IMG/VR virus record: IMGVR_UViG_3300005805_000336
Coordinates: 1 to 29,016 of that record
DNA: 29,016 bases
Source of the DNA: a virus
Taxonomy: Duplodnaviria; Caudoviricetes
Strand: one strand, 5' to 3'
This document shows positions 9,474 to 24,329 of the stretch, one piece after another (the first letter of the stretch is position 1; each line of letters starts with the position of its first letter). The notes beneath the pieces were generated by a model. It did no database searches and was not told the DNA's origin. It worked only from the letters and a program-made list of their open reading frames with translations. Position numbers and translations under genes: made by a program.

Positions 9474-12400
9474 GCGGTGGCAGCAAGACGCAGACCGTAG
9501 GGTGGCGCTACTACATGGGGCTCCACATGGGGCTGTGCCACGGGCCTGTCGATGCCATCACCGAGATCCGGGTCGGCGACCGCACGGCATGGACAGGGGA
9601 GCAGACGGCTTCCGGCGCGATCGCCATCGATGCGCCAGACCTGTTCGGCGGCGAGGAGCGCGAGGGCGGCGTGCAGGGAACGCTCGACGTGATGATGGGC
9701 GAGCCGTCACAGGCGCCGAACAGCTATCTGGTGTCGAAGCTCGGCGCGCTCGTGCCGGCGTTCCGCGGCCTACTGAGCACCGTCTTCAGGCAGGGTTACG
9801 TGGGCGCCAACAACCCTTACGTCAAGCCATGGGCGTTCAAGACGAGGCGCATCCTGCAGGGGTGGCATGGAGGATCGGCGTGGTATCCGGCAAAGGCGGC
9901 GATCGTGCTGGCGGCTCAGTCCTCGAGCGTGCAAAGCCAGGCCGCCTTCGCCATCTTCGCTGGCGCAGACGAGAACAACGCGTTCCCGTACCTGTACACC
10001 ATGCCCGGGTACCAGCCAACTGCGGCCACGGTGACAGAAGACGTCGCGTCGTTCGCGCCCTACGGCGTCGACGGCAACAACAGGGCCGCCATCCTCGATT
10101 CGTCGCCAAGCTTCGACTTCGCGCAGGGCGAGGACTTCGCGATCGAGTTCGAGGTGAACGCCGCTGGCAGTAACGGCGGAATTGGATCTCAGCCCGCGAA
10201 CTTTCTCTTCTGCCGAACGGAGGTCAACTCCACGACGGGAACCGGCAACTACACGATGCTTCGGAAGTGGTCGTTCTCGGAAAACAGCAGCATCGTCAGC
10301 TTCTCTGCGCCGGATATTGCCGGCTTGGTCAGTTGTCCCGCAACGTTCGGGGCGTGGACAAGCTACCGCGTCGAGCGCAACGGGACCACGCTGCGCATGT
10401 ACAAGAACGGAGCGCTCGTAGGATCCAACACCTGCACGGCTGGCGCGATTTCTGGACCGTGCCGTATCGGCATCAATGGCCCCTATCAGTATGGCGTCGG
10501 AGACATCCCGAACACTTGGGGTGGGAACGTCGGAGTCACGAGTTACCGCAATCTGCGCATCTTCAAGGGCTCGATCACGCCGCCGATCATCGGCATGAAC
10601 CCTGCGCATATCGTCTACCAGTGCCTGACCGATCCAGAGTGGGGCATGGGCTACAGCGCGAGCATCATCGACGATGTGAGCTTCAGGGCCGCGGCGGATA
10701 CCTTCTTTGACGAGGGTATGGGGCTGTGCCTGCATTGGGCGAGGCAGGAGCAGATCGAGGCGTTCCTGCAGGTGGTTCTCGACCACGCCGGCGCGCAGCT
10801 GGTGCAGGACAGGCGCACCGGCCTGTTCAAGCTCACGCCGATCCGCGCGAACTACAGCCTCGCATCGCTGCCGGTGTACGACGAAAGCTCCGTTCGGTCT
10901 GTCGATACCTACCAGCGCCCGGGGCTTGCCGGCGCCGTCAATGCGATCACCGTCAAATTCAACGACGTGGCGACAGGCCGCCGCGGCAGCGTGACGGTGC
11001 ACAACCTGGCCAACATCGCCGCCCAGGAGGAGACAGCCGCGCAGGCCAAGGCTTACCCCGGCCTGCCGACGGCCGCGCTGGCGCTGCGGGTGGCCATGCG
11101 GGATCTGCAGGCGGCTTCCACGCCGCTGGCGAAGGTTCGGATGCGCGTCAATCGCACGGCCTACGCTGCGCTGCCCGGAGACGTGATTCGCCTGACTTGG
11201 CCGAAGCTCGGGATCGCCGATCTGGTGCTTCGGGTGCTCCGCGTGGACATCGGGCAGCTGACGGACGGCCTGATCGAGATCGAGGCAGGCGAGGACGTGT
11301 TCGGGCTGCCGGCCGCCACCTACGGGGCTCAACAGCCTTCCGGCTGGGTTCCGCCGAACCAGACGCCGCGGCCGATGGCGGCGCGTCTGGCGCGTGAGGC
11401 CACGTACTACGAGGTTCAGCGCGGCCTGTCGCCAGCCGACCTGGCCGCGCTGCCTTCCGATGCCGGCTACGTCGTCGCCGCCGGCGTTCGGGGCGGGCCG
11501 GACGCGATCGACTACAGCATGAGGACGAGGACCGGCAGCGGCGCTTTCTCCGAGGCCGCGCGCGGCGCTTTCGTGCCCTCGGGGCTTCTTTCTGCGGCGC
11601 TCACGCCAGGCGCAGCGGCCGCCACGCTGACGGGCGTCGTGGACGGCGATCTCATCGCTGCAGGCGCCTACGCGCAGATCGGCCCCGAGATCGTGCGCGT
11701 GGACTCGTTCGATGCTGGCACAGGCGCGATCGCGTTCGGCAGGGGGGTCATGGGCACGGTGGCCAGGCAGCACGCCAGCGGCACGCTGGCGTTATTCTTG
11801 GGCGACTTGATCGCTGACGACGAGACGCAGCGGCTCGACGGCGAGGTGGTCGACGTCAAGCTGCTTACGCGCACAAGCCTGGGCGAGCTCGCCGAGGGCA
11901 GCGCGCCAACCGATTCCGTTGTCATCGATTCGCTCGCCGCCAGGCCATATCCGCCGGGCCGCGTTCGCATCAACGGGGCCGCCTACCCGGCCACGGCGCT
12001 TGCACCGATCACGATCGCGTGGTCGCATCGGAACCGGCTGCAGCAGAATCTCGAGGGCGACGAGAGCGGGAACATCGGGCCGGAGCCTGGCGTGACCTAC
12101 GCCGTCGAGCTGCGCAAGGCGGACACGGGCGACCTGCTGGACCGCACGGATGGCATTGCAGGCACCAGCTATTCGGTGCCGGAGGTGGCCGGCGACTTCC
12201 CGCTGCGCGTGCAGCTGTGGGCCATGCGGTCGGATCCAGACGCTCTGGCGCTGCGGAGTGCATTCGAGGTGACGCGCGCCCTGCCCAGCCTTGGATCTTC
12301 GTCGGTGATCTGGCGATTCTTGATCCCTGCCGGCGGGCATGTTGACGTCCAGCGGTTCTACACGACGACGGCGGGCATCTATCACCAAGTGCGGCGCTAT

Positions 12401-13810
12401 TCCTCGCAGGGCGTGCTCGAGGACACGGCCTACGCATTCATGGTGAGCGGGGCCGCGCTGGACCCGTCGAACAGCCGCCTGGCCGTCGGCATCTACAGCC
12501 TGCCTGCGAGCCTGCAGCAGACCGCGTCGAAGGTCAGGGTGTACGACCTCACGGCGGCCGGGCTATCGACCAGCGTCGACATCACGCCCGACTTCCCGCC
12601 GCCATCTGGCACAGAGATCATCGGCGTCGCGGCGGCCGCCGGCAGCATCTATGCGGTGAACTACGACGGCACCCGCCTCATCCGGTACAACGCTGCAGGC
12701 GCGGAGCAGGCGCGCGTCGACGCGACGCTCTTCCGGCAGTTCGACTGCGATGGCACAGAGCTGATCTTCCCGGCCGCCAGCGGCTTTCAGAGCCGCAACC
12801 CGCTGACACTGGCCGCGATCTCGACCGTGAACTTCGCGCCAGGCGCGACCAGGACAGGGCAACTGCGTCTGGTAGGCGGAGAGGTCGTGTTCATCGGAAA
12901 TCCTCAGTCTGGCGGCAACAGCACGCTGTACCGCTACAGCATGGCCGGCGCGCGCATTGCCAGCTACTCAGCAGTCCCGTTCTCTGGTAGCGGCGCGGGC
13001 TGCGATCTGCAGGCCTTCGGCCCCTACCTGTCGGCCGGCGACAGCGGCACGCCGGCAGTGTTCGACCGGCTGGGCGGTTGGGCCTCTGTGCCGACGGCAG
13101 GCGCCGCCGCGGCCATGGAGAGCGCGCAGCGGCACGATTTCACCACGCAGCACCTCGGCATCCCGCCGTTCTCTTCTGTGGCGCTCCTGCTGCATCTGAA
13201 CGGCGCCAATGGCTCGACATCGTTCCCCGACAGCGGGCCGCTGAACAGGACGGTCACTGGCAGCGGCGGCGCGCAGATCAGCACCGCGCAATCTCGCTTC
13301 GGCGGCGCCTCGGCGAGCTTCAACGGCAGCACGGGCCAGCTCGACACCAACCTCGCGGGCACAGCGTTCGGCACAAGCGACTTCTGTGTGGAATGCTGGA
13401 TCTGGCCAGACAGCCGGGGAATAGGAGACTTCCGTAACATCTTGGGCAACGGCACCGGATTGGGCCAGTTCACGTTTCACCTTAATTCGAACTCGCCTCC
13501 GCAACTCAGGGTATACCTTAGTGGCGGCGTCACTCAGTTGAACGGCGGCACGGTGAGCGCGGACTCATGGTCTCACGTGGCGTTCACCAGACATGGGAAC
13601 ACGTTCAGTATGTTCCTCAACGGTACGCTCGTCGCTGCACACACACAATCAGGAGTCAACTTGAACGCGGCGGATGCCGTTGGGGTCGCTGGTCCGTACG
13701 GGGGTCTGCCGCGGTGGATAGGCTACATCGACGAAGTGAGGGTGACGATCGGCGCGGCCAGGTACACGAGCACCTTCGCCGCCCCGACAGCGCCATTCCC
13801 TGACTTCTGA
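9470..13810 (+). CDS. Central tail fibre / tip attachment protein (J-like) with inserted and terminal LamG-like domains
   Basis: YYMGLHMGLCHGPVD, MNPAHIVYQCLTDPEWGMG and RPYPPGRVRING motifs; C-terminal LLLHLNGANGS...YIDEVRVT LamG-like domain. Confidence 0.92.
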   Translation: MSGGSKTQTVGWRYYMGLHMGLCHGPVDAITEIRVGDRTAWTGEQTASGAIAIDAPDLFGGEEREGGVQGTLDVMMGEPSQAPNSYLVSKLGALVPAFRGLLSTVFRQGYVGANNPYVKPWAFKTRRILQGWHGGSAWYPAKAAIVLAAQSSSVQSQAAFAIFAGADENNAFPYLYTMPGYQPTAATVTEDVASFAPYGVDGNNRAAILDSSPSFDFAQGEDFAIEFEVNAAGSNGGIGSQPANFLFCRTEVNSTTGTGNYTMLRKWSFSENSSIVSFSAPDIAGLVSCPATFGAWTSYRVERNGTTLRMYKNGALVGSNTCTAGAISGPCRIGINGPYQYGVGDIPNTWGGNVGVTSYRNLRIFKGSITPPIIGMNPAHIVYQCLTDPEWGMGYSASIIDDVSFRAAADTFFDEGMGLCLHWARQEQIEAFLQVVLDHAGAQLVQDRRTGLFKLTPIRANYSLASLPVYDESSVRSVDTYQRPGLAGAVNAITVKFNDVATGRRGSVTVHNLANIAAQEETAAQAKAYPGLPTAALALRVAMRDLQAASTPLAKVRMRVNRTAYAALPGDVIRLTWPKLGIADLVLRVLRVDIGQLTDGLIEIEAGEDVFGLPAATYGAQQPSGWVPPNQTPRPMAARLAREATYYEVQRGLSPADLAALPSDAGYVVAAGVRGGPDAIDYSMRTRTGSGAFSEAARGAFVPSGLLSAALTPGAAAATLTGVVDGDLIAAGAYAQIGPEIVRVDSFDAGTGAIAFGRGVMGTVARQHASGTLALFLGDLIADDETQRLDGEVVDVKLLTRTSLGELAEGSAPTDSVVIDSLAARPYPPGRVRINGAAYPATALAPITIAWSHRNRLQQNLEGDESGNIGPEPGVTYAVELRKADTGDLLDRTDGIAGTSYSVPEVAGDFPLRVQLWAMRSDPDALALRSAFEVTRALPSLGSSSVIWRFLIPAGGHVDVQRFYTTTAGIYHQVRRYSSQGVLEDTAYAFMVSGAALDPSNSRLAVGIYSLPASLQQTASKVRVYDLTAAGLSTSVDITPDFPPPSGTEIIGVAAAAGSIYAVNYDGTRLIRYNAAGAEQARVDATLFRQFDCDGTELIFPAASGFQSRNPLTLAAISTVNFAPGATRTGQLRLVGGEVVFIGNPQSGGNSTLYRYSMAGARIASYSAVPFSGSGAGCDLQAFGPYLSAGDSGTPAVFDRLGGWASVPTAGAAAAMESAQRHDFTTQHLGIPPFSSVALLLHLNGANGSTSFPDSGPLNRTVTGSGGAQISTAQSRFGGASASFNGSTGQLDTNLAGTAFGTSDFCVECWIWPDSRGIGDFRNILGNGTGLGQFTFHLNSNSPPQLRVYLSGGVTQLNGGTVSADSWSHVAFTRHGNTFSMFLNGTLVAAHTQSGVNLNAADAVGVAGPYGGLPRWIGYIDEVRVTIGAARYTSTFAAPTAPFPDF

Positions 13811-13896
13811 TCGTGCGCCAATCCTGCGCCACTCGGCACGGGCGAACGCGTGAGAGGTGCACGGATGGCGACGATCAAGCGCGAGTGCCCGTCGTG

Positions 13897-13925
13897 AAAA
13901 GAAACCGGCCGCGCTGGGCGGCCGG
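13897..13925 (-). terminator. Intrinsic terminator of the leftward operon
   Basis: On the minus strand: CCGGCCGC-ccagc-GCGGCCGG followed by TTTCTTTT. Confidence 0.75.
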
Positions 13926-13980
13926 GAAGCCTCATGAGAGGAGGAGACAACCGGACAGGCCGGAGGGCTTTATTCTAGAC

Positions 13981-14319
13981 CTAGGCCATATCCCGCTCTT
14001 CGGCGCGCTGGGCGTAGCTCGGCCGCTTGGCCACGCGGTCCGCCACGGCCTGACCGATTGCGACGCCGCCCAACAGACCGACGCGCTCTCCGTCGATGAC
14101 GACAGCATGCTGGTCGCATCGCGCCTTGGCGGGCACGTACAGCTCGACAACGACGCGCTGCCACAGCTGACCAGGAGCTGGATCGGCTGGGATCGGCGGC
14201 AGCGTGGCTGCCATGGCTTCGCGGCGCGCGTCCATCAACGCGCGGCGTCGCCGACGAGCAGCTGGCGTGTTGCAATGCGCCCAGCGGTTGGGCTTTTGGT
14301 TGCGGCGATGACTTTTCAT
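13981..14319 (-). CDS. Hypothetical protein, last gene of the leftward operon
   Basis: ORF (ATG 14319 or GTG 14325) directly after the cassette 1 stop, followed by the terminator. Confidence 0.6.
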   Translation of the reverse strand: MKSHRRNQKPNRWAHCNTPAARRRRRALMDARREAMAATLPPIPADPAPGQLWQRVVVELYVPAKARCDQHAVVIDGERVGLLGGVAIGQAVADRVAKRPSYAQRAEERDMA

Positions 14320-14336
14320 AGTCACGGTATCTACTA

Positions 14337-14343
14337 GTTAGGA
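14337..14343 (+). other. Left boundary core site (R'-like GTTAGGA) with no upstream attC arm
   Basis: GTTAGG is complementary to CCTAAC of attC1; contains the TAA stop of the cassette 1 gene. Confidence 0.65.
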
Positions 14344-14610
14344 CCTTGCATCACGCAAGCCGTGTGCGTATCCGGCCTCGTACTCGTCTTCGCCGCGCCT
14401 GCGCTGCTGCCAGTCGTTCCAGCAGCGGGTGTGCAGGTACAGGTTCTCTTCCGTGTCGCCCGTATCCAGCGTCAGGCGCACTTCCGGCTCGTGCGCAACG
14501 TGGCCTCTGTAGTGCATCTGCTGGCCGCAGTACCAGCATCGCACCGGCCTAACTGGCGTTTCGAGCCGACCCGCGTCGGCGAGCGGCACCTGTGCGTCTT
14601 CATGCTTCAT
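14338..14610 (-). CDS. Cassette 1 hypothetical protein (CxxC...HxxC metal-binding-like)
   Basis: GGAGG RBS and ATG inside the attC1 loop; CWYC and HTRC motifs; stop in the core site. Confidence 0.7.
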   Translation of the reverse strand: MKHEDAQVPLADAGRLETPVRPVRCWYCGQQMHYRGHVAHEPEVRLTLDTGDTEENLYLHTRCWNDWQQRRRGEDEYEAGYAHGLRDARS

Positions 14611-14645
14611 CTGCGCCTCCTTGGCGGCTCAAACTATCGTTGGGC
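14547..14645 (+). repeat. attC site 1 (99 bp)
   Basis: GCCTAAC-TGGCG-TTTCGAGC...GCTCAAA-CTATC-GTTGGGC. Confidence 0.88.
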
Positions 14646-14647
14646 GG

Positions 14648-14965
14648 CTAGTAGCAGATCACGCGCGCAAGGTGCGCCACGGTCCGCACCTTGATCGTCT
14701 TGCCGCTGGTGCTTGTCACCTCTAGCCCCTTTGCGCCCATGTCGTTCTCCCAGCAGTACCAATCGAGCCATTCGTTGTCGTCGCCAACCTCGCGCCCCAG
14801 GCATGCGGTGTAGGCGTCCCACATACGCCCCATAGCCAGCGCAATCGGCGCTTCTGGGCCGCACTTCGTCAGTGCTTGCAATGCCTCGTACTGGGCCTGC
14901 CAGTCGTCGTACCTGCGCTGCCACTCCAGCAGGCGCGGCGCAATGTCTGCTGGCTTCTTCTTCAT
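14648..14965 (-). CDS. Cassette 2 hypothetical protein
   Basis: 105 aa ORF filling the cassette; WLDWYCWENDMG. Confidence 0.75.
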   Translation of the reverse strand: MKKKPADIAPRLLEWQRRYDDWQAQYEALQALTKCGPEAPIALAMGRMWDAYTACLGREVGDDNEWLDWYCWENDMGAKGLEVTSTSGKTIKVRTVAHLARVICY

Positions 14966-14999
14966 GCGTCTTTTCCCTTCGTGCCTTCGTTCACCAGCC

Positions 15000-15057
15000 G
15001 CCCAACCCCTCGCTCAACTTGACCGCCTACGGCGGCAAGTTAGCTCGAACGTTAGCC
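15000..15057 (+). repeat. attC site 2 (58 bp)
   Basis: GCCCAAC-CCCTC-GCTCAACT-tgaccgcctacggcggca-AGTTAGC-TCGAAC-GTTAGCC. Confidence 0.93.
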
Positions 15058-15291
15058 AGCACGGGCGCGAAGCATGGCGTCAGCACATGCGTAGGCGCTG
15101 GCCGCCCATTCATTGATGATCTGCTCGCCCGTCTTGCCATCCACACACCATGCGCGCCCCATCAATCCCGGCAATGCTTGTGCCGCAAAGTAGTCGCGCA
15201 TCGACATGCCAAAAGAAGTCATTTCTTGTTGTCCTTGGCCGTTCAATTCCCATACCGGGAATGCCGGTCCTCCGTCTTTGTCTGTGCTCAT
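15052..15291 (-). CDS. Cassette 3 conserved phage hypothetical protein (GGPAFP / RDYFAA family)
   Basis: DGGPAFP...GMSMRDYFAAQAL...AYACADAMLRAR; AAGGA RBS; stop in R' of attC2. Confidence 0.82.
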   Translation of the reverse strand: MSTDKDGGPAFPVWELNGQGQQEMTSFGMSMRDYFAAQALPGLMGRAWCVDGKTGEQIINEWAASAYACADAMLRARAG

Positions 15292-15324
15292 GTTGTCCTT
15301 CCTGCCAGCGTTGTTATGGGTGCT

Positions 15325-15376
15325 GGCTAACCCTTCGCTCAAGCCGACCTTCGGCGGCTTAGCTCAAACGTTAGGT
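15325..15376 (+). repeat. attC site 3 (52 bp, aadA-attC-like)
   Basis: GGCTAAC-CCTTC-GCTCAAGC-cgaccttcggcg-GCTTAGC-TCAAAC-GTTAGGT. Confidence 0.93.
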
Positions 15377-15377
15377 T

Positions 15378-16100
15378 TCACAACAGCCCCTCTTGCACAG
15401 GCTGTCGCGGCTCTTCGGGCGGCAGTAGCGTGCCCTGGGCCTGGGCGCGGCTGATGCGCTCGCAGGCGATGTCGAAATACGGGCGGTGGATCTCCACGCC
15501 GATGAAGCGGCGCCCCATCGTCACGGCGGCAACTCCTGTGCTTCCGCTGCCCATGTAGGGGTCAAAGATCACGTGCGCCTTGGGCATTTGCTCAAGGCAC
15601 CAGCGCATCACGCCTTGCGGCTTCGTTGTCGGGTGCCAGCGCTGGCCGCCTTCCTCGCCCGCCTTCACGCATGCCACGCCCTTCCACAAGTACCGGATCA
15701 CGTTTCGCTTAATCTTCAGGTTCGTCCATGCGTACTCCGCGTCGGCGAAGCTGTCATTCGGGCCAATGCCCGTGTGCTTGTCCCAGGCCACCAGCGTCCC
15801 GCCTTCCGGCAGCCTGGCGCGGTAGTGGTCGGCGCCAAACATCAGCACCGCCGGGAAACGCAGCAGCGGTGTCGGATCAAACGGCACGGTGTCTTCGTGA
15901 ATCGGTTTGTTCGCGTTCTTGCCAAGTGTGCCAAGGCGCTTCATGGTCAAGCTGACCGGAGAGGCCCCGCCGCCTCCGTGCACGTACCCAATGCCATATG
16001 GCGGGTCGGTCACGCATGCGTCGGCCTGCACAAGCGGCAGCACCTCGCGGCAGTCCCCGTGCCACAGTTCCGCGTTCCCGATCACCACTTTTTCAGCCAT
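15378..16100 (-). CDS. Cassette 4 DNA N6-adenine/N4-cytosine methyltransferase (beta class)
   Basis: TDPPYG precedes HPTTKP and FDPYMGSGSTG...FIGVEI. Confidence 0.92.
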   Translation of the reverse strand: MAEKVVIGNAELWHGDCREVLPLVQADACVTDPPYGIGYVHGGGGASPVSLTMKRLGTLGKNANKPIHEDTVPFDPTPLLRFPAVLMFGADHYRARLPEGGTLVAWDKHTGIGPNDSFADAEYAWTNLKIKRNVIRYLWKGVACVKAGEEGGQRWHPTTKPQGVMRWCLEQMPKAHVIFDPYMGSGSTGVAAVTMGRRFIGVEIHRPYFDIACERISRAQAQGTLLPPEEPRQPVQEGLL

Positions 16101-16127
16101 CGTCATCCTTCGATATATCGCTGTGAA

Positions 16128-16196
16128 ACCTAACACTACGCTGCACCGGACCCAGCCCGGCAGGCCGGGCCGGTCCGGTGAGCTACAGCGTTAGGC
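16128..16196 (+). repeat. attC site 4 (69 bp)
   Basis: ACCTAAC-ACTAC-GCTGCACC...GGTGAGC-TACAGC-GTTAGGC. Confidence 0.9.
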
Positions 16197-16388
16197 GCTT
16201 TTCATCCAAGCCACCAGATACAGCATCGTGCTGCTGCCGTGATCGCTGCAGCTCTGGCTTTGCCACGAGTCGCCGTCCCAGTAGACCCAGCAGAAGTGCT
16301 CGCCAGCATCGGTTTTGCCCCAGTTGTTGCCTTTTGCCCAAACGGGGCGGCCGTCCTTGGGCGCCGTCTCAATCGGTTGCCATTCCAT
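16191..16388 (-). CDS. Cassette 5 DUF551-like protein
   Basis: MEWQPIETAPKDG...AWM; GAGG RBS; stop in R' of attC4. Confidence 0.8.
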   Translation of the reverse strand: MEWQPIETAPKDGRPVWAKGNNWGKTDAGEHFCWVYWDGDSWQSQSCSDHGSSTMLYLVAWMKSA

Positions 16389-16412
16389 CGTTTCCTCGCT
16401 TCGGCGCCGCGC

Positions 16413-16512
16413 GCCTAACCCCTCGCTCAAGCAGACCGCGAACGGCGGCCACGTTTTCTGTCTCCGTCCAAGCCTAAGCGCCGTTCACGGCAGCTTAGCT
16501 CGAACGTTATGC
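16413..16512 (+). repeat. attC site 5 (100 bp)
   Basis: GCCTAAC-CCCTC-GCTCAAGC...GCTTAGC-TCGAAC-GTTATGC with internal stem GAACGGCG/CGCCGTTC. Confidence 0.92.
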
Positions 16513-17612
16513 GTGTTGCTCATGCCACCAGTGAGCATGCGCCAGGCTGTGGCTGCACACCGGGGCACTTGTCCATTGCCGAGGGCTTTAAGTCTGTCCA
16601 CCCGATGGGCCACCCCATCAGCCACTCGACCCACGTCGGGTTCAGCTTCCCACCAACTTGGTCGGCCAATCCCACCTGGGGATCGGTCGGCTTCCTGCCG
16701 GTCAGCTTCACCACCGAGCTCTTGGGCTCCGTCACCACGCTGGTGGGCGTGCGCCACATGCGCGCCGCCGCGTCGTTCAAGTTCGAGCGCCGGCCGTTCA
16801 AACTCTGCGCGCCCTTGTAGCGTTCCGGTATCCCAATGCGATGGTCGCTGTTCTTGGGTGTCGGCCACCTGGCCACCGCCACCGCCAGCGGCTGCTGCAA
16901 GTTGATGCCCTGCGCCGCCTTCTCGGCCTGGCGCCGCTCCCAGTTCTCCACGTTGCCGCTCTGCTTTGCATCGCCGGCATTCGGCGTCGGCCACATGGCC
17001 GCACTCGCCGCAAGGCCACGGTTGCTGCTCCTGCCGTCCGGCCGCATGTGCCGCACCGTGCCCGTCTCCGTCACGTACAGGTTCCCGCCCGTGATCGGCC
17101 GCGCGTCGGTCGCGCAGGGTGTCGGCACCCACAAGCCAGAATCGGTCGCGCTGGTGGGGGGCGCCAACGTCGGCAGCTCCCAGCACTGTCCAGCGGCAGT
17201 CATACCCGAGCGCGGCCAGGTCACCGAGCACTCGTCCGAGTCCCCGAGTAAGGAGCGCTGGGCTGTTCTCCACGAAGCAGAAGCGGGGTCGAACCTCGCC
17301 AATGATCCGCGCCATGTGGGTCCACATTCCGCTGCGCTCGCCGTCGATGCCTGCGCCCTTGCCGGCCACGCTGATGTCCTGGCAAGGAAAGCCCCCCGAA
17401 ACCACGTCAACAAGCCCGCGCCAAGGTCGTCCGTCAAAGGTGCGAACGTCGCTCCAGACCGGGAAAGCCGGGAGAAGTCCTTCGTTCTGGCGGGCGGCAA
17501 GTACGCAAGCGGCGTAGGGTTCCCACTCCACAGCGCACACGCAGCGCCACCCGAGCAACTTGCCCGCGAGTATTCCGCCACCAGCGCCTGCGAAAAGAGC
17601 CAACTCATTCAT
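16485..17612 (-). CDS. Cassette 6 DNA cytosine-5 methyltransferase, main chain
   Basis: LFAGAGG (motif I), GGFPCQ (IV), VENS (VI), HQRDRF (VIII), LKALGNGQVP (X). Confidence 0.93.
   Translation of the reverse strand: MNELALFAGAGGGILAGKLLGWRCVCAVEWEPYAACVLAARQNEGLLPAFPVWSDVRTFDGRPWRGLVDVVSGGFPCQDISVAGKGAGIDGERSGMWTHMARIIGEVRPRFCFVENSPALLTRGLGRVLGDLAALGYDCRWTVLGAADVGAPHQRDRFWLVGADTLRDRRAADHGREPVRDGDGHGAAHAAGRQEQQPWPCGECGHVADAECRRCKAERQRGELGAAPGREGGAGHQLAAAAGGGGGQVADTQEQRPSHWDTGTLQGRAEFERPALELERRGGAHVAHAHQRGDGAQELGGEADRQEADRSPGGIGRPSWWEAEPDVGRVADGVAHRVDRLKALGNGQVPRCAATAWRMLTGGMSNTHNVRAKLP
16520..17608 (-). CDS. Alternative-frame partner chain of the C5 methyltransferase (WPTP repeats plus motif IX-like segment)
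   Basis: 362 aa same-strand overlapping ORF; four W(P/R)TP-type repeats and LNPTWVEWLMGWPIGWT; true start uncertain. Confidence 0.7.
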   Translation of the reverse strand: MSWLFSQALVAEYSRASCSGGAACALWSGNPTPLAYLPPARTKDFSRLSRSGATFAPLTDDLGAGLLTWFRGAFLARTSAWPARAQASTASAAECGPTWRGSLARFDPASASWRTAQRSLLGDSDECSVTWPRSGMTAAGQCWELPTLAPPTSATDSGLWVPTPCATDARPITGGNLYVTETGTVRHMRPDGRSSNRGLAASAAMWPTPNAGDAKQSGNVENWERRQAEKAAQGINLQQPLAVAVARWPTPKNSDHRIGIPERYKGAQSLNGRRSNLNDAAARMWRTPTSVVTEPKSSVVKLTGRKPTDPQVGLADQVGGKLNPTWVEWLMGWPIGWTDLKPSAMDKCPGVQPQPGACSLVA

Positions 17613-17637
17613 ACATCTCCACGCTTCGGAACCACAC

Positions 17638-17710
17638 GCATAACACCTCGCTCAAGGCGACCCGCTACGGGCTAGCGCCCTTCGCGGGCGCCTTAGCTCC
17701 AGCGTTGGGC
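17638..17710 (+). repeat. attC site 6 (73 bp)
   Basis: GCATAAC-ACCTC-GCTCAAGG...CCTTAGC-TCCAGC-GTTGGGC. Confidence 0.92.
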
Positions 17711-17919
17711 GTCTTGCGTTCGTTCCACGGCCGCAGCGCCTCGTCCTCTGCGCGGCTGCCGGATCGCAGCAGGCGAGCGAATGGCCCTGTTGCGAGGCAT
17801 TGGCCGCATTGCACGCTCACCGTCCGCTGCATGTGGTTCCAGTTGAAGGTGTGGCGCGGGTCGCGCGTGCCGGCGTTTCCGCAATGGGGGCACGGCAGCA
17901 CGTCAGTGGAACTCGTCAT
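17665..17919 (-). CDS. Cassette 7 Lar-like zinc-ribbon protein
   Basis: LPCPHCG...VQCGQCLATGP...WNER pattern; GGAG RBS; reads through into attC6. Confidence 0.72.
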   Translation of the reverse strand: MTSSTDVLPCPHCGNAGTRDPRHTFNWNHMQRTVSVQCGQCLATGPFARLLRSGSRAEDEALRPWNERKTPNAGAKAPAKGASP

Positions 17920-18151
17920 CGTCGTCTCTCCATTGGTGGCACAGGCACTCGCAGTCGTCGTCGTGCTGCTCGCGGCTGTCAATGTCGCGGTCGTAGCGCA
18001 GCAGCGCGCACAGCCGCGCCGAGTCGCTCACGCAGGCGCAGCCGTAGGTGCCGCGCGGGCCGTCTTGGTCGCGCTCCGGCACCGGCCGCCCAACCCCTCG
18101 CTCAACCGGAGAGCCCACAGCGGGCGCCTCGGCGTTCGTTGCATCCGTCAT
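17903..18151 (-). CDS. Cassette 7 Cys-rich hypothetical protein starting inside attC7
   Basis: ATG overlaps the upstream stop (ATGA); CAC...C...CECLCH. Confidence 0.65.
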   Translation of the reverse strand: MTDATNAEAPAVGSPVERGVGRPVPERDQDGPRGTYGCACVSDSARLCALLRYDRDIDSREQHDDDCECLCHQWRDDDDEFH

Positions 18152-18181
18152 GTGGGCTCCCGGTTAGCTCGAACGTTAGGG
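18088..18181 (+). repeat. attC site 7 (94 bp)
   Basis: GCCCAAC-CCCTC-GCTCAACC-ggagagcccaca...tgtgggctccc-GGTTAGC-TCGAAC-GTTAGGG. Confidence 0.92.
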
Positions 18182-18549
18182 CTCTCTTCGTCGGGCGGGC
18201 TGTAGTCCCACTTAGCAATCAGCGCCATCGCTTGCGGCGGCAGCGGGTTCGCCACCAGTTCGGCCCGCGCACGCACCCAGCCGGCGCAAATCTTGCCATC
18301 CAGCGGGCTGTGGCACTGAAACGGCTTTCCTTCCGCCGCAGCTTTCAGAAAGTCCATCTGCGTCTGCAAGCACCCGTTCGGCACGCTTCCAGGCTGGCAT
18401 GCGCAGGTCTTGCACATGTCGTCGCGCAGTCCTGGGCCTTTCACGCCGTAGAGCCCCATTTCCACCAGCCGGGCGCGGCCAAGCTCAGCCAGGCGCGCGG
18501 CGCTCTTTCCCATTGCGCGGCCCTCGGGTGTCACTCTGCTGTGTGTCAT
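18148..18549 (-). CDS. Cassette 8 hypothetical protein (CxxCxC...CH...CAGW)
   Basis: AAGGA RBS; MCKTCAC, PFQCH and ICAGW motifs; reads through into attC7. Confidence 0.78.
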   Translation of the reverse strand: MTHSRVTPEGRAMGKSAARLAELGRARLVEMGLYGVKGPGLRDDMCKTCACQPGSVPNGCLQTQMDFLKAAAEGKPFQCHSPLDGKICAGWVRARAELVANPLPPQAMALIAKWDYSPPDEESPNVRANREPT

Positions 18550-18577
18550 GCCTATATCCTTTCGCTTCGGCTGCCAG

Positions 18578-18636
18578 CCCTAACTGGTCGCTCAACCGGG
18601 CCGCCGAAGGCGGTCCGGTTAGCTCCAACGTTGGGC
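18578..18636 (+). repeat. attC site 8 (59 bp)
   Basis: CCCTAAC-TGGTC-GCTCAACC-gggccgccgaaggcggtcc-GGTTAGC-TCCAAC-GTTGGGC. Confidence 0.93.
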
Positions 18637-18642
18637 CGCCCG

Positions 18643-18843
18643 CTACTCGCTGCGCTGCTGCTTGCGCAACTTTGCGGCATCGCGCGTCACCAGCTCGCGC
18701 ACGCGATCCGGCCCGATCAGCAGCGCATCGGCCCACTGCGCGTCGGTCATGCGGATCTTCCGCACGGCCATCACTTCGCCGCTGGAGTCCTTGGGCTTGC
18801 GCCCTTGGCCTCTTCCGGGGCCGCCGCGCTTTGGTTGTTCCAT
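18643..18843 (-). CDS. Cassette 9 small DNA-binding protein (RGG.GRGQGRKP plus RHH-like)
   Basis: KRGGPGRGQGRKP...VRKIRMTDAQW. Confidence 0.7.
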   Translation of the reverse strand: MEQPKRGGPGRGQGRKPKDSSGEVMAVRKIRMTDAQWADALLIGPDRVRELVTRDAAKLRKQQRSE

Positions 18844-18989
18844 CCTGCCACCTCTTCCACGCACGTCTCGAACTGGCTGTCTGTCATCCCGGTGGTGTCC
18901 ACGTCTTCGGGATGGGTGTCATGCGGGTGGCGCCAGGCGAAGCGGCCTTGCCGCAGCACCAGCCGCCACCCTTCGGCGGCAAGGCTCAC
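18771..18989 (-). CDS. Cassette 9 small hypothetical protein
   Basis: GTG overlaps the upstream TGA; AAGAAGG RBS-like sequence. Confidence 0.5.
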   Translation of the reverse strand: MSLAAEGWRLVLRQGRFAWRHPHDTHPEDVDTTGMTDSQFETCVEEVAGWNNQSAAAPEEAKGASPRTPAAK

Positions 18990-19147
18990 GCCTTCTTGCT
19001 CCGCAGCTCGTCGTAAACCTCGCCGGCCAGCTTCATAAACGTACCTTCGCCGAGCACTGCATCGATGGCCTGCTGCACGGTCATGCCGGCTTGCATCTTG
19101 GCGAGGATCTTGGCGCTGATCGTGGCGTTCTTGAAGACTTGGTTCAT
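18986..19147 (-). CDS. Cassette 9 small hypothetical protein (53 aa)
   Basis: MNQVFKNATISAKIL...; ATG about 30 bp downstream of the -10 box. Confidence 0.65.
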   Translation of the reverse strand: MNQVFKNATISAKILAKMQAGMTVQQAIDAVLGEGTFMKLAGEVYDELRSKKA

Positions 19148-19177
19148 GTCGTGCTGCGTTGCGTTGTCGATGGGTGT

Positions 19178-19206
19178 ACTGTAGCCACGCAATCCAACAT
19201 CGTCAA
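19178..19206 (-). promoter_or_regulatory. Sigma70-type promoter internal to cassette 9
   Basis: TTGACG-17 nt-TACAGT on the minus strand, with an A-tract upstream. Confidence 0.72.
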
Positions 19207-19239
19207 GCACTTTTTGTGGCCGCGCAATCAAGTCGCGCA

Positions 19240-19273
19240 CAAGCTCCGGTGGTCGCCTGCAAGCTCCGGTGGT
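19240..19273. repeat. 14-bp direct repeat with 20-bp period
   Basis: CAAGCTCCGGTGGT at 19240-19253 and 19260-19273. Confidence 0.85.
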
Positions 19274-19294
19274 TGCGCGCTCCGGCAAGGCCCG

Positions 19295-19367
19295 GCCCAA
19301 CAAAGCCAGTGCAGCCGACTCGCTACGGCCTTCGGCCTTCGCTCACGGCTGACTGCCGGCGTTAGGC
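19295..19367 (+). repeat. attC site 9 (73 bp)
   Basis: GCCCAAC-AAAGCC-AGTGCAGC...GCTGACT-GCCGGC-GTTAGGC (left spacer is 6 nt). Confidence 0.85.
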
Positions 19368-19715
19368 GCTCAGTGGCGGCACAGGCAGCCAATGCGTCGG
19401 GTTCGGCCCGAGCGGGTTGCTGTCGGCCGTTGTCGCATCGTCGTAAACCCATCCGCTCCACTCTTCGCCGTCAAGGTAGCTGGCAGCCACCCACGGCGTA
19501 TAGCCCGGCGTGGTGTCGTTCACCAGAACCATCGTGCCGTCGTGTGGCGCAGTGGCTATCGGCAACCACGCGCCTAACCCCTCGCTGAACGCCGCGGCGA
19601 CGCAGCCCTCGGTCGCGCAGTAGACCGGCTGCGAGCCGAGCAGTCCCGGTCCGATGACGAGCGAGCCGAGGAAGGTGTCTGCGCCGCAGTGGGCGCACTT
19701 GCCGACGGGGCGCAT
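19362..19715 (-). CDS. Cassette 10 fusion: Cys-containing N-terminus plus DUF551-like domain
   Basis: ATG overlaps the upstream TGA; CAHC..CATEGC, then FSEGLG (half attC), then WLPIATAPHDG...PTHWLPVP; stop in R' of attC9. Confidence 0.72.
   Translation of the reverse strand: MRPVGKCAHCGADTFLGSLVIGPGLLGSQPVYCATEGCVAAAFSEGLGAWLPIATAPHDGTMVLVNDTTPGYTPWVAASYLDGEEWSGWVYDDATTADSNPLGPNPTHWLPVPPLSA
19572..19591 (+). repeat. Truncated attC (R'' and L'' only)
   Basis: GCCTAAC-CCCTC-GCTGAACG with no matching L'/R' downstream. Confidence 0.75.
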
Positions 19716-20017
19716 CAGTGCCCCCCTTTCGCCGCCTCGGCTATGTCGGAAGCGGTTTGTGGCGCCAGAACGAATCTCACCCACTTGCGCGGGTTGCGGC
19801 GCTGCCGAAGGCCATTCTCGCGAAGCCAAATGGCGTATGCGGTTGTCTTCAGGCCGAGCCCGATCTCTTCCATGTGCGCGACCTCGACCTCCTCCCAATC
19901 CGTTTTTTCGACCACAAGGACCTTCAGGATGGTCTGCGCGAGTAGGTCAGGCTGGCCGCGTATCGGCTTTCTGATATCAGCAAGCCGCGCCCAGGCGGCT
20001 CGTGCTGCTTCGTTCAT
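19715..20017 (-). CDS. Hypothetical protein
   Basis: AAGGAG RBS; translationally coupled at both ends. Confidence 0.7.
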   Translation of the reverse strand: MNEAARAAWARLADIRKPIRGQPDLLAQTILKVLVVEKTDWEEVEVAHMEEIGLGLKTTAYAIWLRENGLRQRRNPRKWVRFVLAPQTASDIAEAAKGGH

Positions 20018-20316
20018 CAGTGTGCTCCTTTCGCCGCCTCAGCCTCTTTCGCGGCCATCCTGCGGCCGTAGCCGATGCAGGCGGCCATGATGCCCTCGGA
20101 CTGCACGAGGCCGACCTGGGCGCCCATCGCGGCCGTGATGGCGGCCATGAGGCCGTGCCAGAAGAGCAGGCGCTCGGCGTGCGTCATGCCATCGCATGCG
20201 ACCTTCGTGACGAGCGGAAGCACGGCGTCGGCCACCTGAGCGCCGACCATCATCGGCGGCGCCATGATGTCGATCTCGAAGTCGTGTTGCGCGAGCGGTT
20301 CGGGTTCGGTGCTCAT
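20017..20316 (-). CDS. Hypothetical protein
   Basis: MSTEPEPL start; stop overlaps the next ATG. Confidence 0.7.
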   Translation of the reverse strand: MSTEPEPLAQHDFEIDIMAPPMMVGAQVADAVLPLVTKVACDGMTHAERLLFWHGLMAAITAAMGAQVGLVQSEGIMAACIGYGRRMAAKEAEAAKGAH

Positions 20317-20453
20317 CGGTGCGGCCCTTTCCACTGCTGCTGGTCGTCGCGATCCATGCTCATCACCAAGCATGCCATGAGCATCACGCCAAGCGTGCCG
20401 CCGATGGAAAGGCCAAGCGCGCCTCAGGCGAGCGCGAGGCCGGTGAATCTCAC
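20313..20453 (-). pseudogene. Small membrane protein gene interrupted by an in-frame TGA
   Basis: MRFTGLALA*GALGLSIGGTLGVMLMACLVMS...; coupled to both neighbours (GTGA, ATGA). Confidence 0.5.
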
Positions 20454-20659
20454 GACCTCTTCCCCTTTGCCGGCCGCGTCTCCAGGCCCCGCAGGAACTC
20501 GTCGACGGTGGCGCGGCGCCAGGACAGGCGGCGGGTGTTCAAGCGCGGCGGCAGCCAGTCGGCGCCGCCACGCGCGACGGCGCTGCGGATGGCGGCCTCG
20601 GTGCGGCCGAGCAGCTTTGCCATCTCGGGCACGTATAGGACTTGCGCTTCGGTGCTCAT
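20450..20659 (-). CDS. Excisionase/AlpA-like HTH protein
   Basis: VLYVPEMAKLLGRTEAAIR...LPP...RRLSWRRATVDEFL. Confidence 0.78.
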   Translation of the reverse strand: MSTEAQVLYVPEMAKLLGRTEAAIRSAVARGGADWLPPRLNTRRLSWRRATVDEFLRGLETRPAKGKRS

Positions 20660-20669
20660 GGGATCCTCG

Positions 20670-21188
20670 TCAGGTGGTGGAAGTGTTGCCGGCTGCGGCC
20701 GCGCCGCCGTCGCCGTCGAACAGGTCGGGCGGCCCTTCGATCTCGACGCGCGCGCCGTCTTGCACGCGCTTCGCCAGCTCGGCGATGTCGCCGCTGCTCG
20801 GATAGAGCGACACGCTGCAGGTGACGTCGACAGTGCCGCCGTCGCGCGGCTGCAGGGCGAACTTCTTCACCTCGCACCCGGCGAAGCTGGCGCCGTCGAT
20901 CTTCACGCTGGCGCTGGTGATCGCGTTCGCGTAGGCCACCGGGCGCATGAAGCCGTTGCGCGCGGCCATGATCCCGCCCGACTCGGCGCGCCATAGGAAG
21001 GCTTCGAGGGCCTCGTCGAAGTAGGCGCAGAGCGCACGGTCTACCTTCGTGAAGGCGAGCTTCACGTCGACGGCCAGGATCTTCTCGTCGTCGGGGCCTT
21101 CCTTGCGCACGTTGAGGTGCTTGATCTCGGCGATGCCGGCCAGGCGGAAGACCGGGCGCTTCGGGGTGGTGGTGGTGTCGGTGCTCAT
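20670..21188 (-). CDS. Conserved phage hypothetical protein
   Basis: 172 aa with phage-like codon usage; HLNVRKEG..E..LAVDVKL. Confidence 0.78.
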   Translation of the reverse strand: MSTDTTTTPKRPVFRLAGIAEIKHLNVRKEGPDDEKILAVDVKLAFTKVDRALCAYFDEALEAFLWRAESGGIMAARNGFMRPVAYANAITSASVKIDGASFAGCEVKKFALQPRDGGTVDVTCSVSLYPSSGDIAELAKRVQDGARVEIEGPPDLFDGDGGAAAAGNTSTT

Positions 21189-21191
21189 GGC

Positions 21192-21626
21192 CTAGAAGGG
21201 AATGTCGTCGTCCATGTCGTCGAAGCCGGTGCCCGTGCCCTTCGCAGCGGGCCGCGGCGCCGGTGCAGCTGCGCGCGGTGCCGGTGCGGGCGCGGCCTGG
21301 CGCTGCTCGCCGCCTTCGCGGCTGCCGGCGAACTGCAGGTCGTCGATCCGCACGGCCAGCTTCCAGCCCGGCGAGCCGTCGCGCTTCTCGAACGTCTCGA
21401 CGCACGGCTCTCCGATGATCTCGATCTGAGTGCCCTTCTTCAGGTAGTCGGCCAGCTTCTCGGCGCGCGTGCCCCACAAGGTGCAGTCGATCCACTGCGT
21501 CGGCTGCTCGCCGTCGACTTTGCGGCCGTGGTTGTAGGCCGCGGAGAAGGCCGCGACGGGCGTGCCGTCGGGGCTGTAGCGCACCTCGGCGTCGCGGCCG
21601 AGGCGGCAGAGTCCGATCAGTTTCAT
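21192..21626 (-). CDS. ssb: Single-stranded DNA-binding protein
   Basis: RLGRDAEVRY...YLKKGTQI...; acidic tail DDDIPF. Confidence 0.95.
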   Translation of the reverse strand: MKLIGLCRLGRDAEVRYSPDGTPVAAFSAAYNHGRKVDGEQPTQWIDCTLWGTRAEKLADYLKKGTQIEIIGEPCVETFEKRDGSPGWKLAVRIDDLQFAGSREGGEQRQAAPAPAPRAAAPAPRPAAKGTGTGFDDMDDDIPF

Positions 21627-21628
21627 GC

Positions 21629-21817
21629 TCAGTGCACTCCTTGGACGTTGACGAGGATCGAGGCGTCGACCACGGCGTAGGCCGCGCGCTCGGCGCCGCG
21701 CTTCGTGGCGTAGGCCTCGCCGCTGTCGGCCACCGTGCGGCCGGTCGCGGCCTTCATGCGCCAGCGCCAGCCGTCGGCGGCCTTGTAGACGGTGATGGTG
21801 TAGGTCTTGAATTTCAT
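21629..21817 (-). CDS. YegP/DUF1508-like protein
   Basis: YKAADGWRWRMKAATGRTVADSGEAYATKRGA. Confidence 0.8.
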   Translation of the reverse strand: MKFKTYTITVYKAADGWRWRMKAATGRTVADSGEAYATKRGAERAAYAVVDASILVNVQGVH

Positions 21818-21869
21818 GCTGCCGGTCTTTCGTGGTGCTGGGGCGGCGCGAGGCCGCCCTGGGTTGTGA

Positions 21870-22583
21870 TCAGCGGCGAGCCGCCAGGGTCTGCTTCTCG
21901 AACACGCGCACGCCCGGCAGGTTCGTCGCCATTCCGGTCGCACGCACCTGGGCGCGCAGCCTCACGGAGTCGACGGCCAGCAGCGCCAGCAGCTCGGGGC
22001 GCTGCGCGACGTGCTGAACCAGCGCCAGCAGGTCGACGACCTCGAAGTCGACGGTGGTGCTGGTGCTGATGCCCTTCACGGCCGGCGGCGCCGGCACGGC
22101 CGCGGGAGGCGCGACGACCATCTGCGCGACCTGATCCTTCACGGCAGCCTCGCCGGTGCGGCCCTCGGCGGCTAGGGCCTTCGCCTCGGCCTCGAGGCGC
22201 TCGCGCTCGGCTTGAGCGGCACGCTCGCGCGCTAGGCGATCCTCCTCGGCCTTGCGCTGCTCCTCGCGCTGCCAGCCGAGCATCTTCTGCTTCAGGATGC
22301 CCTCGGCCTGCTCGAGCAGCGCGATCGGCGGCTTGAACAGCGCCATGACGGCGGCCTTCGCGGCGTCGAGCGGCTTCGTGATGCCGAGGCGCTTCTCGTT
22401 CAGCGCGTCGATCTTGCGCTTGATCGCCTTGAGCTCGTCGGCCGCGATCTCGAATGTTGCGGCGTCGACGACCTCGAAGGACTGCACGAGGTCGAGCGCG
22501 CTGGCGGCGCCGCGCTGCAGGTCGGCGCTGCTGGGCGCTGCGATCGCGACGCTAGCGGGGATGGTGGCGGTGGTGTCGTTCAC
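21870..22583 (-). CDS. Coiled-coil phage protein of the recombination module
   Basis: GTG overlaps the exonuclease stop; ITKPLDAAK..., LPGVRVFE. Confidence 0.75.
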   Translation of the reverse strand: MNDTTATIPASVAIAAPSSADLQRGAASALDLVQSFEVVDAATFEIAADELKAIKRKIDALNEKRLGITKPLDAAKAAVMALFKPPIALLEQAEGILKQKMLGWQREEQRKAEEDRLARERAAQAERERLEAEAKALAAEGRTGEAAVKDQVAQMVVAPPAAVPAPPAVKGISTSTTVDFEVVDLLALVQHVAQRPELLALLAVDSVRLRAQVRATGMATNLPGVRVFEKQTLAARR

Positions 22584-23203
22584 TTGGTGGCTTCCTTCCA
22601 GGAGTGCAGCGCCAAGCATGCCATGAAGCATGCTGAATCGCTGTGATTCGTGAATCGGTGCAAACGATAGGTGCCGTCGTCAAACAGATGAACGCTGGCG
22701 CGGCGGATCTGAGAGCCTGGTCCGAGGTCGGCGTCGTTGACGTGCAGCAGCTCCTCGTAGGCAGCCAACTGCACGCCGAAGGACGGGTGCGGCTGCAGGC
22801 CGGTCTTGCGGTCGACCAGCACGATGTCGGTGCCGTGCCCGCGCCACGCGCGCATCCGCACCAGGCCGTCAAGCGTGCCGGCGTAGCGAAGCGTCGGGTG
22901 GTAGAGCCGCTGCTCGGTGGCGAGCACCTCGACGTCGTTCTCGATCTTGAAGCGGCGCCAGGCGTGCACGCAAGCCATGACGCGCGCATCGGTGCCGTCG
23001 TCGTCGAGCTCGCCCAGGTCGTCGAGTTCGCAGGCTAGGTGCACGGCCAAACCGAAGGCGCGCGCGGCTTCGAGCAGCTGCGGCGGCACCGCGCTGAAGT
23101 CAGGGCCGATGCCGGCGCCCTTGAGCAGCTGGGTGACGCTCGGCAGCCTCACGCCGTCGAGGGCGTAGGTGTGCGAGGCCTCGTCGAATGAGAAGAAGGG
23201 CAT
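22580..23203 (-). CDS. PD-(D/E)XK exonuclease
   Basis: FDEASHTY, LPSVTQLL, G..VH, YAGTLD...VDRKTG...QLAAY. Confidence 0.85.
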   Translation of the reverse strand: MPFFSFDEASHTYALDGVRLPSVTQLLKGAGIGPDFSAVPPQLLEAARAFGLAVHLACELDDLGELDDDGTDARVMACVHAWRRFKIENDVEVLATEQRLYHPTLRYAGTLDGLVRMRAWRGHGTDIVLVDRKTGLQPHPSFGVQLAAYEELLHVNDADLGPGSQIRRASVHLFDDGTYRLHRFTNHSDSACFMACLALHSWKEATK

Positions 23204-24078
23204 CACGCGCCCCGCTTCAGCAGCTCGGCCTTCACCGTGTCGAAGTCGGCCTTCGACAGCTTGCCGGCCTCGATCACCACTCCATGCAAGCCGACGGCCG
23301 CGGCCACCTCGGCCAGATCGGCGCCGATGCTGCGCGCCTTGTTGCCCAGGTAGGCGATCTCGCCCTGGCCGACCATGCGGTCGCCGCTAGGCGCGGGCGC
23401 GGCGGCCTGGACCGGCGCCGTCACAGCCGCATTCTCCTCGGCGCTCGCGCCGGCGCTAGTGGCAGGCGTCGCGTCGACTACGTCGGCCGGCGCCGGTGCG
23501 GCGCTGGGCCGTGGCTTGCGCGCCACCGTCGGGCCTGCAGGCGGCTGAACGACAGTGGTGCCGTCGGACTGGGTGGCGACGACGTCGAGATCCTGCGCTT
23601 CCTCGGTGACGATCGCGCCGCCCAGCGCTGCCGGGAAGGTCGCGCGCACGCCCTCGGCGATGCACCGGGCGCGCAGCATGGCGCGCGGTGTCCGCTTCCA
23701 ATTGTCCTTGTTCAGCAGGCCGGCGCGGGCAGCCATGTCGAGGTTCCACTCGATCCGCACGCTGCCGCCCTTCGGGTGGCTGAACGTGCCGCTCACGACC
23801 TGCTCGGTGAAGTCGTGCCACTGCACGCTGCCGCCGGCCTGCTGAAAGCGGGCGAGCACGCTGTGCGTCTTGCGCGCCGGGCGGCCTTGGATGACGTCGT
23901 AGTCCTGCGCCACGCTGGCCGGATGCAGGCCCTCGGCGTCGGCGATCAGCATCAGCGCGTAGGCTTGCTGCGGCGTCTGGATGCCGAACAGCTTCGACTC
24001 GGCCAGGGCGCCGGCCATGTCGCGCATGTCGGTGAGGGAGAAGGCGCGCTGCTCGCGCACCGCAGGTAGGTTGCTCAT
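23203..24078 (-). CDS. RecT/Red-beta-like single-strand annealing protein
   Basis: GLHP....YDVIQGRP, AARAGL..KDNWKRTPRAMLRARC...RATFP; adjacent to exonuclease and SSB. Confidence 0.75.
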   Translation of the reverse strand: MSNLPAVREQRAFSLTDMRDMAGALAESKLFGIQTPQQAYALMLIADAEGLHPASVAQDYDVIQGRPARKTHSVLARFQQAGGSVQWHDFTEQVVSGTFSHPKGGSVRIEWNLDMAARAGLLNKDNWKRTPRAMLRARCIAEGVRATFPAALGGAIVTEEAQDLDVVATQSDGTTVVQPPAGPTVARKPRPSAAPAPADVVDATPATSAGASAEENAAVTAPVQAAAPAPSGDRMVGQGEIAYLGNKARSIGADLAEVAAAVGLHGVVIEAGKLSKADFDTVKAELLKRGA

Positions 24079-24130
24079 GGGTGGTTGTCGTCCTGTGATG
24101 CCGCCGGTCTATCGCCGAGCGCGCATCGCA

Positions 24131-24159
24131 ATGCTACATCGTAGCGGAGCGCGGCGCAA
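24131..24159 (-). promoter_or_regulatory. Leftward early promoter (PL-like)
   Basis: TTGCGC-17 nt-TAGCAT on the minus strand. Confidence 0.55.
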
Positions 24160-24300: not shown

Positions 24301-24329
24301 TTGCAATATCAGGCTATCGGAAATAGCAT
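24301..24329 (+). promoter_or_regulatory. Rightward early promoter (PR-like)
   Basis: TTGCAA-17 nt-TAGCAT upstream of the Cro-like gene. Confidence 0.62.

Follow-up and report, generated by a model that had tools for sequence, protein, structure and literature searches.

The window analyzed here, positions 1 to 29,016 of the IMG/VR virus record IMGVR_UViG_3300005805_000336 (Duplodnaviria; Caudoviricetes), carries nine integron-type attC cassettes within a phage early operon. This array is a genuine and recently reshuffled cluster of attC sites lacking an integron integrase nearby (CALIN). It belongs to a phage-type class in which cassette genes are inverted relative to attC, and it begins at an attI-like platform. 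Phages with nearly the same backbone carry other cassettes between the same boundaries. We consider it likely that this phage holds an integrase-less integron, consisting of an attI-like site and nine inverted attC cassettes that differ between relatives at G|TT, and that its cassettes are probably moved by IntI acting in trans, from the host or from an IntI-encoding phage.

Nine attC sites in a phage early operon

The nine attC sites lie within 14547-19367, and the + strand is the attC top strand at each. The array and its immediate surroundings, with open reading frames (ORFs), are as follows.

13905..13925, - strand: terminator-like hairpin and T-run (consensus match only; 8 such matches found versus 6.7 in shuffles)
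13981..14319, - strand: platform gene, 112 aa, with homologous clusters
14320..14343, + strand: putative attI-like site with an L-like box and a 5-nt spacer; the crossover G|TT lies at 14337
14338..14639, + strand: cassette 1, attC 14547-14645; 90-aa ORF 14610-14338 on -
14640..15051, + strand: cassette 2, attC 15000-15057; 105-aa ORF on -
15052..15370, + strand: cassette 3, attC 15325-15376; 79-aa ORF on -, phrog_2201
15371..16190, + strand: cassette 4, attC 16128-16196; N6/N4 DNA methyltransferase on -, PF01555
16191..16506, + strand: cassette 5, attC 16413-16512; 65-aa ORF on -, no Pfam match
16507..17704, + strand: cassette 6, attC 17638-17710; C5 cytosine methyltransferase on -, PF00145, ending within the next attC
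17705..18175, + strand: cassette 7, attC 18088-18181; 82-aa ORF starting in its own attC, then the Lar restriction-alleviation gene (PF14354, phrog_599), both on -
18176..18630, + strand: cassette 8, attC 18578-18636; 133-aa ORF on -, its stop overlapping the next start within attC 18088
18631..19361, + strand: cassette 9, attC 19295-19367; three short ORFs on -
19206-19178, - strand: sigma-70-like promoter upstream of the cassette 9 ORFs (consensus scan)
19362..19591, + strand: fixed anchor cassette
20450..24078, - strand: leftward early genes (excisionase-like, SSB, exonuclease, RecT-like)

All nine sites of the original prediction, which was made from the sequence alone, were recovered as complete sites at their proposed starts, facing the same way and delimiting units of 302, 412, 319, 820, 316, 1198, 471, 455, and 731 bp. 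Each follows the R''-L''-loop-L'-R' layout with an extrahelical base. An AAC core is separated by 5 nt from an 8-nt L'', which includes the extra base, and, beyond the loop, a 7-nt L' is separated by 5-6 nt from a GTT core. The prediction had allowed a 6-nt first spacer in one site; our parse gives 5 nt in all nine, and site 19295 can also be read with 6. The early genes at 20450..24078 are codirectional with the cassette ORFs.

A strict site grammar matched seven of the nine sites. When the region was dinucleotide-shuffled 300 times, the mean was 0.01 matches, and 60 shuffles of the whole window gave 0. These controls apply to the strict grammar only; a looser one gives all nine sites. A covariance model built from 22 bacterial-array attC sites and no phage sites, used in place of IntegronFinder's own model, likewise detected 9/9 sites at 37.8 to 67.6 bits (E of 1e-6 or better), with the next-best match at 13.7 bits. 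The proposed covariance-model check thus came out in favor of the array. R'' pairs with the 5' end of its own unit at 7/7 positions in eight of the nine units and at 6/7 in unit 1, while pairing with the adjacent R' is 5-6/7 throughout and never complete. Complementarity of R'' to the unit's own 5' end indicates that the cassettes were assembled at G|TT. The bottom strands fold, with L-box pair probabilities of 0.3 to 0.99. An Rfam search gave no match, as expected for a DNA element. Of 50,697 annotated phage records searched by blastn with the array, 127 gave a match; among the matches listed (40), all were pieces of the methyltransferase regions and none spanned the array.

To the right of cassette 9, a tenth site (19572-19591), in the anchor cassette, keeps only R'' and L'', with no L' or R' following, and lies in frame within ORF 19715-19362. 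The cassette 5 ORF resembles DUF551 by motif only, and DUF551 membership was confirmed neither for it nor for the anchor.

Near-identical phages differ by whole cassettes

The complete 47,353-base record G001 was used as a near-identical reference. Its identity to the window is 99.76% over 1-13162, 99.1% over 13881-14342, and 99.86% over 19360-29014. Between the G|TT at 14337 and the G|TT at 19361, G001 carries six different cassettes, likewise inverted; the anchor is the same in both, and G001 diverges at 19360. A scan covering 48 of 64 parts yielded two further metagenome contigs. L345 has the first four cassettes of G001, then window cassette 4, then more cassettes, and the switch from G001 cassette 4 to window cassette 4 falls exactly at G|TT, with 5 shared bases. 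L344 has yet another first cassette, the third seen. Four distinct arrays therefore occupy one backbone that is ~99.8% identical. In the comparison of window, G001, and L345, a hairpin and the gene to its left move together, with the hairpin located where that gene starts.

Assembled contigs from 8 of 20 listed runs were also compared. Six runs, belonging to six other studies, have contigs whose match begins at 19360 and whose preceding letters differ; in three of these runs the preceding letters are G001's attC. Cassettes 1 and 2 occur elsewhere preceded by foreign sequence, and their ends there are at G|TT; in runs X4, X5, and X7, other letters come first and the match to cassette 2 begins at 14638. 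Run X1 contains the array in two contigs with 0 differences and may be the source sample. These data agree with the original proposals that related phages vary at G|TT and that the phage builds its accessory region from cassettes, the differences being whole cassettes bounded by G|TT. Misassembly is argued against by the independent junctions in G001, L344, L345, and the six other studies. Run X14 has a joint at which cassettes 2-3 are missing, but with only 23 letters on one side it was discounted.

A separate difference affects the C-terminal part of the long tail protein (13163-13880), which is swapped between the window and G001 on their 99.8% identical backbones. L344 has the window type and L345 the G001 type of this block, which is likely a host-range module.

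Cassette genes are inverted relative to attC

All cassette ORFs in the window lie on the - strand and are thus inverted relative to attC, a point absent from the original prediction. In an ordinary integron, the gene is read from attI toward attC (PMC5027507). That usual orientation, with the gene ending near R'', was not found in the window. A ribosome-binding site (RBS) and start codon lie just inside R'' in six of the eight scored cassettes and after G|TT in none. Two genes begin in the loop of their own attC, including that of cassette 1, whose RBS and start are both inside the loop; three end in the attC of the next cassette, one with a stop/start overlap.

The same arrangement was found in a wider class of viral arrays. 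One 16-base attC motif retrieved 146 viral stretches (about 170 estimated), 80 of them with wide flanks, from which 148 distinct cassettes in 38 loci were parsed. Pfam matches occurred in 15 of 148 inverted ORFs versus 0 of 147 forward ORFs, and an RBS and start lie inside R'' in 86 cassettes and after G|TT in 4. With the same motif, 139 bacterial stretches from 5 of 64 parts gave 109 cassettes, mostly from Burkholderiales and other betaproteobacteria. In these, 45 Pfam matches were forward and 8 inverted, and 4 of the 8 sit in two prophage-like loci (L190 and L219). The recombinase profile PF00589 matched in 7 of 49 viral records, and in 1 of 8 near-complete ones, below the cut-off.

Longest-ORF length is a poor test of orientation in GC-rich phage DNA, miscalling two of the eight window cassettes; by this measure the viral cassettes were 63 inverted, 22 forward, and 63 ties. 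A codon model trained on this phage called 100 viral cassettes inverted, 0 forward, and 48 unclear. Because the bacterial control of this model was not clean (see below), the orientation rests on the Pfam matches and RBS position. Some cassettes of the class contain a Tad2-like anti-Thoeris domain or RNA ligases (L058, 2265-2564; L025, 1267-1866; L063, 4417-5028), which are candidate antidefense cargo.

An attI-like site is conserved beside the platform gene

The platform ORF (14319-13981) belongs to an unnamed family with 28 homologous clusters. Its product has no match in Pfam, PHROG, NCBIfam, or Atlas, and its predicted fold (pLDDT 85, pTM 0.47) matched nothing in PDB or BFVD and no recombinase fold. 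The gene adjoins the attI-like site in 16 of 16 viral loci, with the GTT core at a fixed distance from the gene start (~17 bases where the start can be aligned). The R'' of the first attC pairs with this platform core at 7/7 positions in 11 of 13 loci and at 6/7 in the other 2. An L-like box and 5-base spacer precede the core in the 14 distinct platforms (16 loci minus two duplicates); the box ends in AAC in 5/14 and in ATC in 4/14. The window's site, simple in form and with an imperfect L-like box, serves as the left breakpoint in G001, L345, and L344. From these features we read 14320-14343 as a putative attI-like docking site conserved beside the platform gene.

No IntI scored over the cut-off in any of the 14 platform records, 5 of which are complete. 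A consensus scan found no + strand promoter match for a cassette promoter (Pc) reading from attI into the array, and the genes are read in the direction of the attI-like site. Left ends of a second attI-like family were seen in L033, L053, L063, L094, L041, and L101, some of which are followed by a different small basic ORF.

The integrase is absent from this phage but present in related systems

No tyrosine recombinase was found in the window, and the PF00589 and PF00239 profiles found nothing in the window or in G001. A tblastn search of G001 with an IntI gave no match, and 42 of 47 long ORFs from the rest of G001 were assigned to packaging, head, and other nonrecombinase families only. The original claim that no integrase lies beside the array therefore extends to a complete, near-identical genome. 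The window array is accordingly an attC cluster with no intI nearby, and an intI adjoining the array was found in neither the window nor G001.

Such an arrangement, a complete integron, was found in G023, a temperate phage with an integrase, an excisionase-like gene, a true IntI, an attI, and seven inverted cassettes. Its IntI scores 427 bits against TIGR02249 (cut-off, 265), and intI is codirectional with the cassette genes. Searching with this protein identified 11 viral loci, 8 of them at 73-100% identity (four of these partial), and our scanner found attC nearby in 7 of the 8. In a small tree of 14 rows, five chromosomal IntI proteins lie outside a single branch (100/100) that holds the four full-length phage IntI proteins. 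Members of this clade (L301, 1453-2433; L311-L316, L319, and L320) lie at the end of the early operon, are often followed by an excisionase and a phage integrase, and include several truncated copies. Three homologues on AT-richer viral contigs (L317, L318, and L321), with 48-65% identity to phage IntI, had no array nearby and were left out of the class.

The attC motif of these phages also fills Burkholderiales arrays, and all five tested genomes with this attC type encode IntI; one G001 attC shares 110 of 129 positions with a site in a Rubrivivax array. The betaproteobacterial array L230 contains two inverted, phage-type cassettes among forward ones (9972-11409), and its intI is on contig C4, apparently the same contig. 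One carries an N6/N4 methyltransferase and matches a cassette of the IntI phage L312 at 77.6% identity across 790 bases; the other, a Lar cassette, matches L314 at 87% identity across 257 bases. No viral-bacterial pair was found among the 272 cassettes compared, the L230 link involving a partner outside that set. The idea that a host supplies IntI in trans is supported as a supposition and is refined by these data, since the enzyme could come from IntI-encoding phages as well as from the host.

A model for cassette movement and its alternatives

In the model that we favor, IntI supplied in trans would recombine the folded hairpins of the - (bottom) strand, and new cassettes would enter at 14337. 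A leftward early transcript, perhaps helped by the promoter-like site in cassette 9, would read all cassettes toward the platform gene and stop at the terminator-like site at 13925. With the cassettes covered by this transcript, Pc would not be needed. The truncated attC of the anchor could not excise, which would pin the right end. The cargo, with two DNA methyltransferases and Lar, would mainly counter restriction by the host, probably a freshwater member of the Burkholderiales. Gene order suggests an origin near 25300 in the replication gene, which would send a fork leftward and make the bottom strand the lagging template. Placement of the bottom strand on the lagging template favors attC recombination (PMC5371416), and the inverted genes could run with such a fork while the bottom strand keeps this favorable orientation. 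Short tandem repeats at 25285-25360, within the replication initiator gene, are possibly an origin. The phage RecT-like system likely adds hybrid cassettes.

Arrays built by IntI in the past might now move only by phage RecT/exonuclease recombination, as blocks or via homologous cassette genes. RecT-like and exonuclease genes are present in the window, and the tail-fiber block has been swapped between the window and G001 without attC. The L345 copy of the cassette 4 methyltransferase is moreover a hybrid within the gene, identical over ~690 bases except for a one-base deletion and then different in its 5' end and attC. We nevertheless consider this explanation unlikely, since the L345 junction between the two cassettes numbered 4 shares only 5 bases, at G|TT, four different arrays occupy one nearly invariant backbone, and single cassettes in other contexts end at G|TT. 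The recombination could also be due to another enzyme in trans, either a short Xer-like protein without the IntI insertion or a complex that needs the platform protein, whose gene is linked to the attI-like site in every locus. This is quite improbable, because the window attC sites match canonical IntI-linked bacterial sites, a true IntI adjoins the same kind of array in other phages, and the platform protein has no recombinase fold match. Least credible is recombination of the top strand, in which each hairpin would go with its right-hand gene, making the cassettes ordinary forward ones read from the opposite strand. Low-rate top-strand recombination exists (PMC5027507), and R''/R' pairing by itself fits both strands alike. 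The hairpin left of the anchor gene, however, differs between the window and G001, as does that left of cassette 4 between the window and L345; on the + strand, the extra base falls in the left L box, which is also its place in forward bacterial arrays scanned in the same way; and in two cases the start of a gene lies within its right-hand hairpin. Hairpins stay with the left-hand gene, which largely refutes the forward-cassette reading.

Several observations weigh against the trans-IntI model itself. The window's L-like box reads ATC rather than AAC, its attI-like site is unlike the attI of IntI phages, and R'' of cassette 1 pairs imperfectly with its own 5' end. The hybrid methyltransferase in L345 means that homologous recombination also acts. 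All the junction evidence comes from assembled contigs, and the codon model failed its control, calling the bacterial cassettes 26 forward, 17 inverted, and 66 unclear. The host assignment is itself only inferred, and the replication origin and fork direction are drawn from gene order only.

Other features of the genome

The window represents a viral record that is 50% complete. Tail genes are on the + strand up to 13810, and an HNH homing endonuclease gene (2187-2693) lies between the tail terminator and major tail genes. Beyond the leftward early block, the gene order is cro-like, replication, sigma-factor, and VRR-NUC genes. No cI-like repressor gene was found between the RecT and cro-like genes (24078-24360), and there is no integrase despite the excisionase-like gene at 20450-20659. 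With neither a cI-like gene nor an integrase, the phage resembles a lambdoid phage that has become lytic. The sigma-70 family factor (27589-28305), with regions 2, 3, and 4, occupies the position of a late regulator.

Relation to known integron systems

The original prediction held that attC arrays are rarely described in phages. They are indeed rare in print, yet Qi et al. (2023; Front Microbiol 14:1091391, PMC9892861) reported 17 phage CALINs in 10,705 genomes, with DNA methyltransferase cargo, and three complete integrons in temperate phages. In their in vitro-style assays, IntI1 recombined five of six phage attC sites tested. Those CALINs resemble the present array as attC clusters without intI and in their methyltransferase cargo. 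In the supplementary table they have two to four sites each, compared with nine here, and the authors treat them as bacterial cassettes that were captured. The available portions of that text and supplement describe neither inverted genes nor an attI-like platform, nor swaps between near-identical phages. By our scan, TJE1 from their records is forward (3 sites) and MW202573 inverted (2 sites).

The sedentary chromosomal integrons of Burkholderiales share with this array the attC sequence family and structure, circular-form pairing, and the G|TT crossover. They differ in having forward genes (45 versus 8 Pfam matches), intI in cis, and metabolic and stress cargo (GNAT, glyoxalase, and SnoaL). 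In chromosomal integrons, moreover, bottom strands are mostly on the leading template (PMC5371416). The Treponema group of inverted-integrase integrons (Cury et al., 2016; PMC4889954) also has an unusual orientation within the integron, but in that group it is intI that is flipped with respect to attC. Here the cassette genes are flipped, and the IntI phages keep intI in its usual position relative to attC. The attG insertions and single attC sites lacking integron integrases (SALINs) described by Loot et al. (10.1101/2022.09.11.507474) show that IntI can insert cassettes at nonintegron sites, and an attG-type insertion may be the origin of the platform. The attG sites are scattered GWT sites; the platform site is fixed, conserved in 16 loci, and reused by many cassettes. 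A literature search that fell short of most subscription journals turned up no publication about phage cassettes of the inverted kind, about the platform or natural swaps, or about a clade of phage IntI.

Integrons are now viewed as bacterial stores of antiphage genes. The arrays described here indicate that phages use integron chemistry for counterdefense cargo, with the wiring reversed. More broadly, we see an even chance that Burkholderiales phages run a mirror-image integron system. Such a system would comprise phage-specific inverted antirestriction cassettes, an early-operon IntI clade, and integrase-less phages that hitchhike via a docking site and a small gene; phages and host integrons would exchange cassettes, and new gene-attC combinations would arise through phage recombination. 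If so, phages would be among the places where cassettes arise. Experiments could address where cassettes originate and whether phage and host trade them, because the platform site, phage IntI, and cassette pool are all small enough to clone. Candidate antidefense genes, including methyltransferases, Lar, the Tad2-like domain, and RNA ligases, are also enriched in these arrays. The four arrays on one backbone provide direct natural evidence that an integrase-less phage changes its accessory genes cassette by cassette, which is a sequence-level mechanism for part of the mosaicism of phage early regions.

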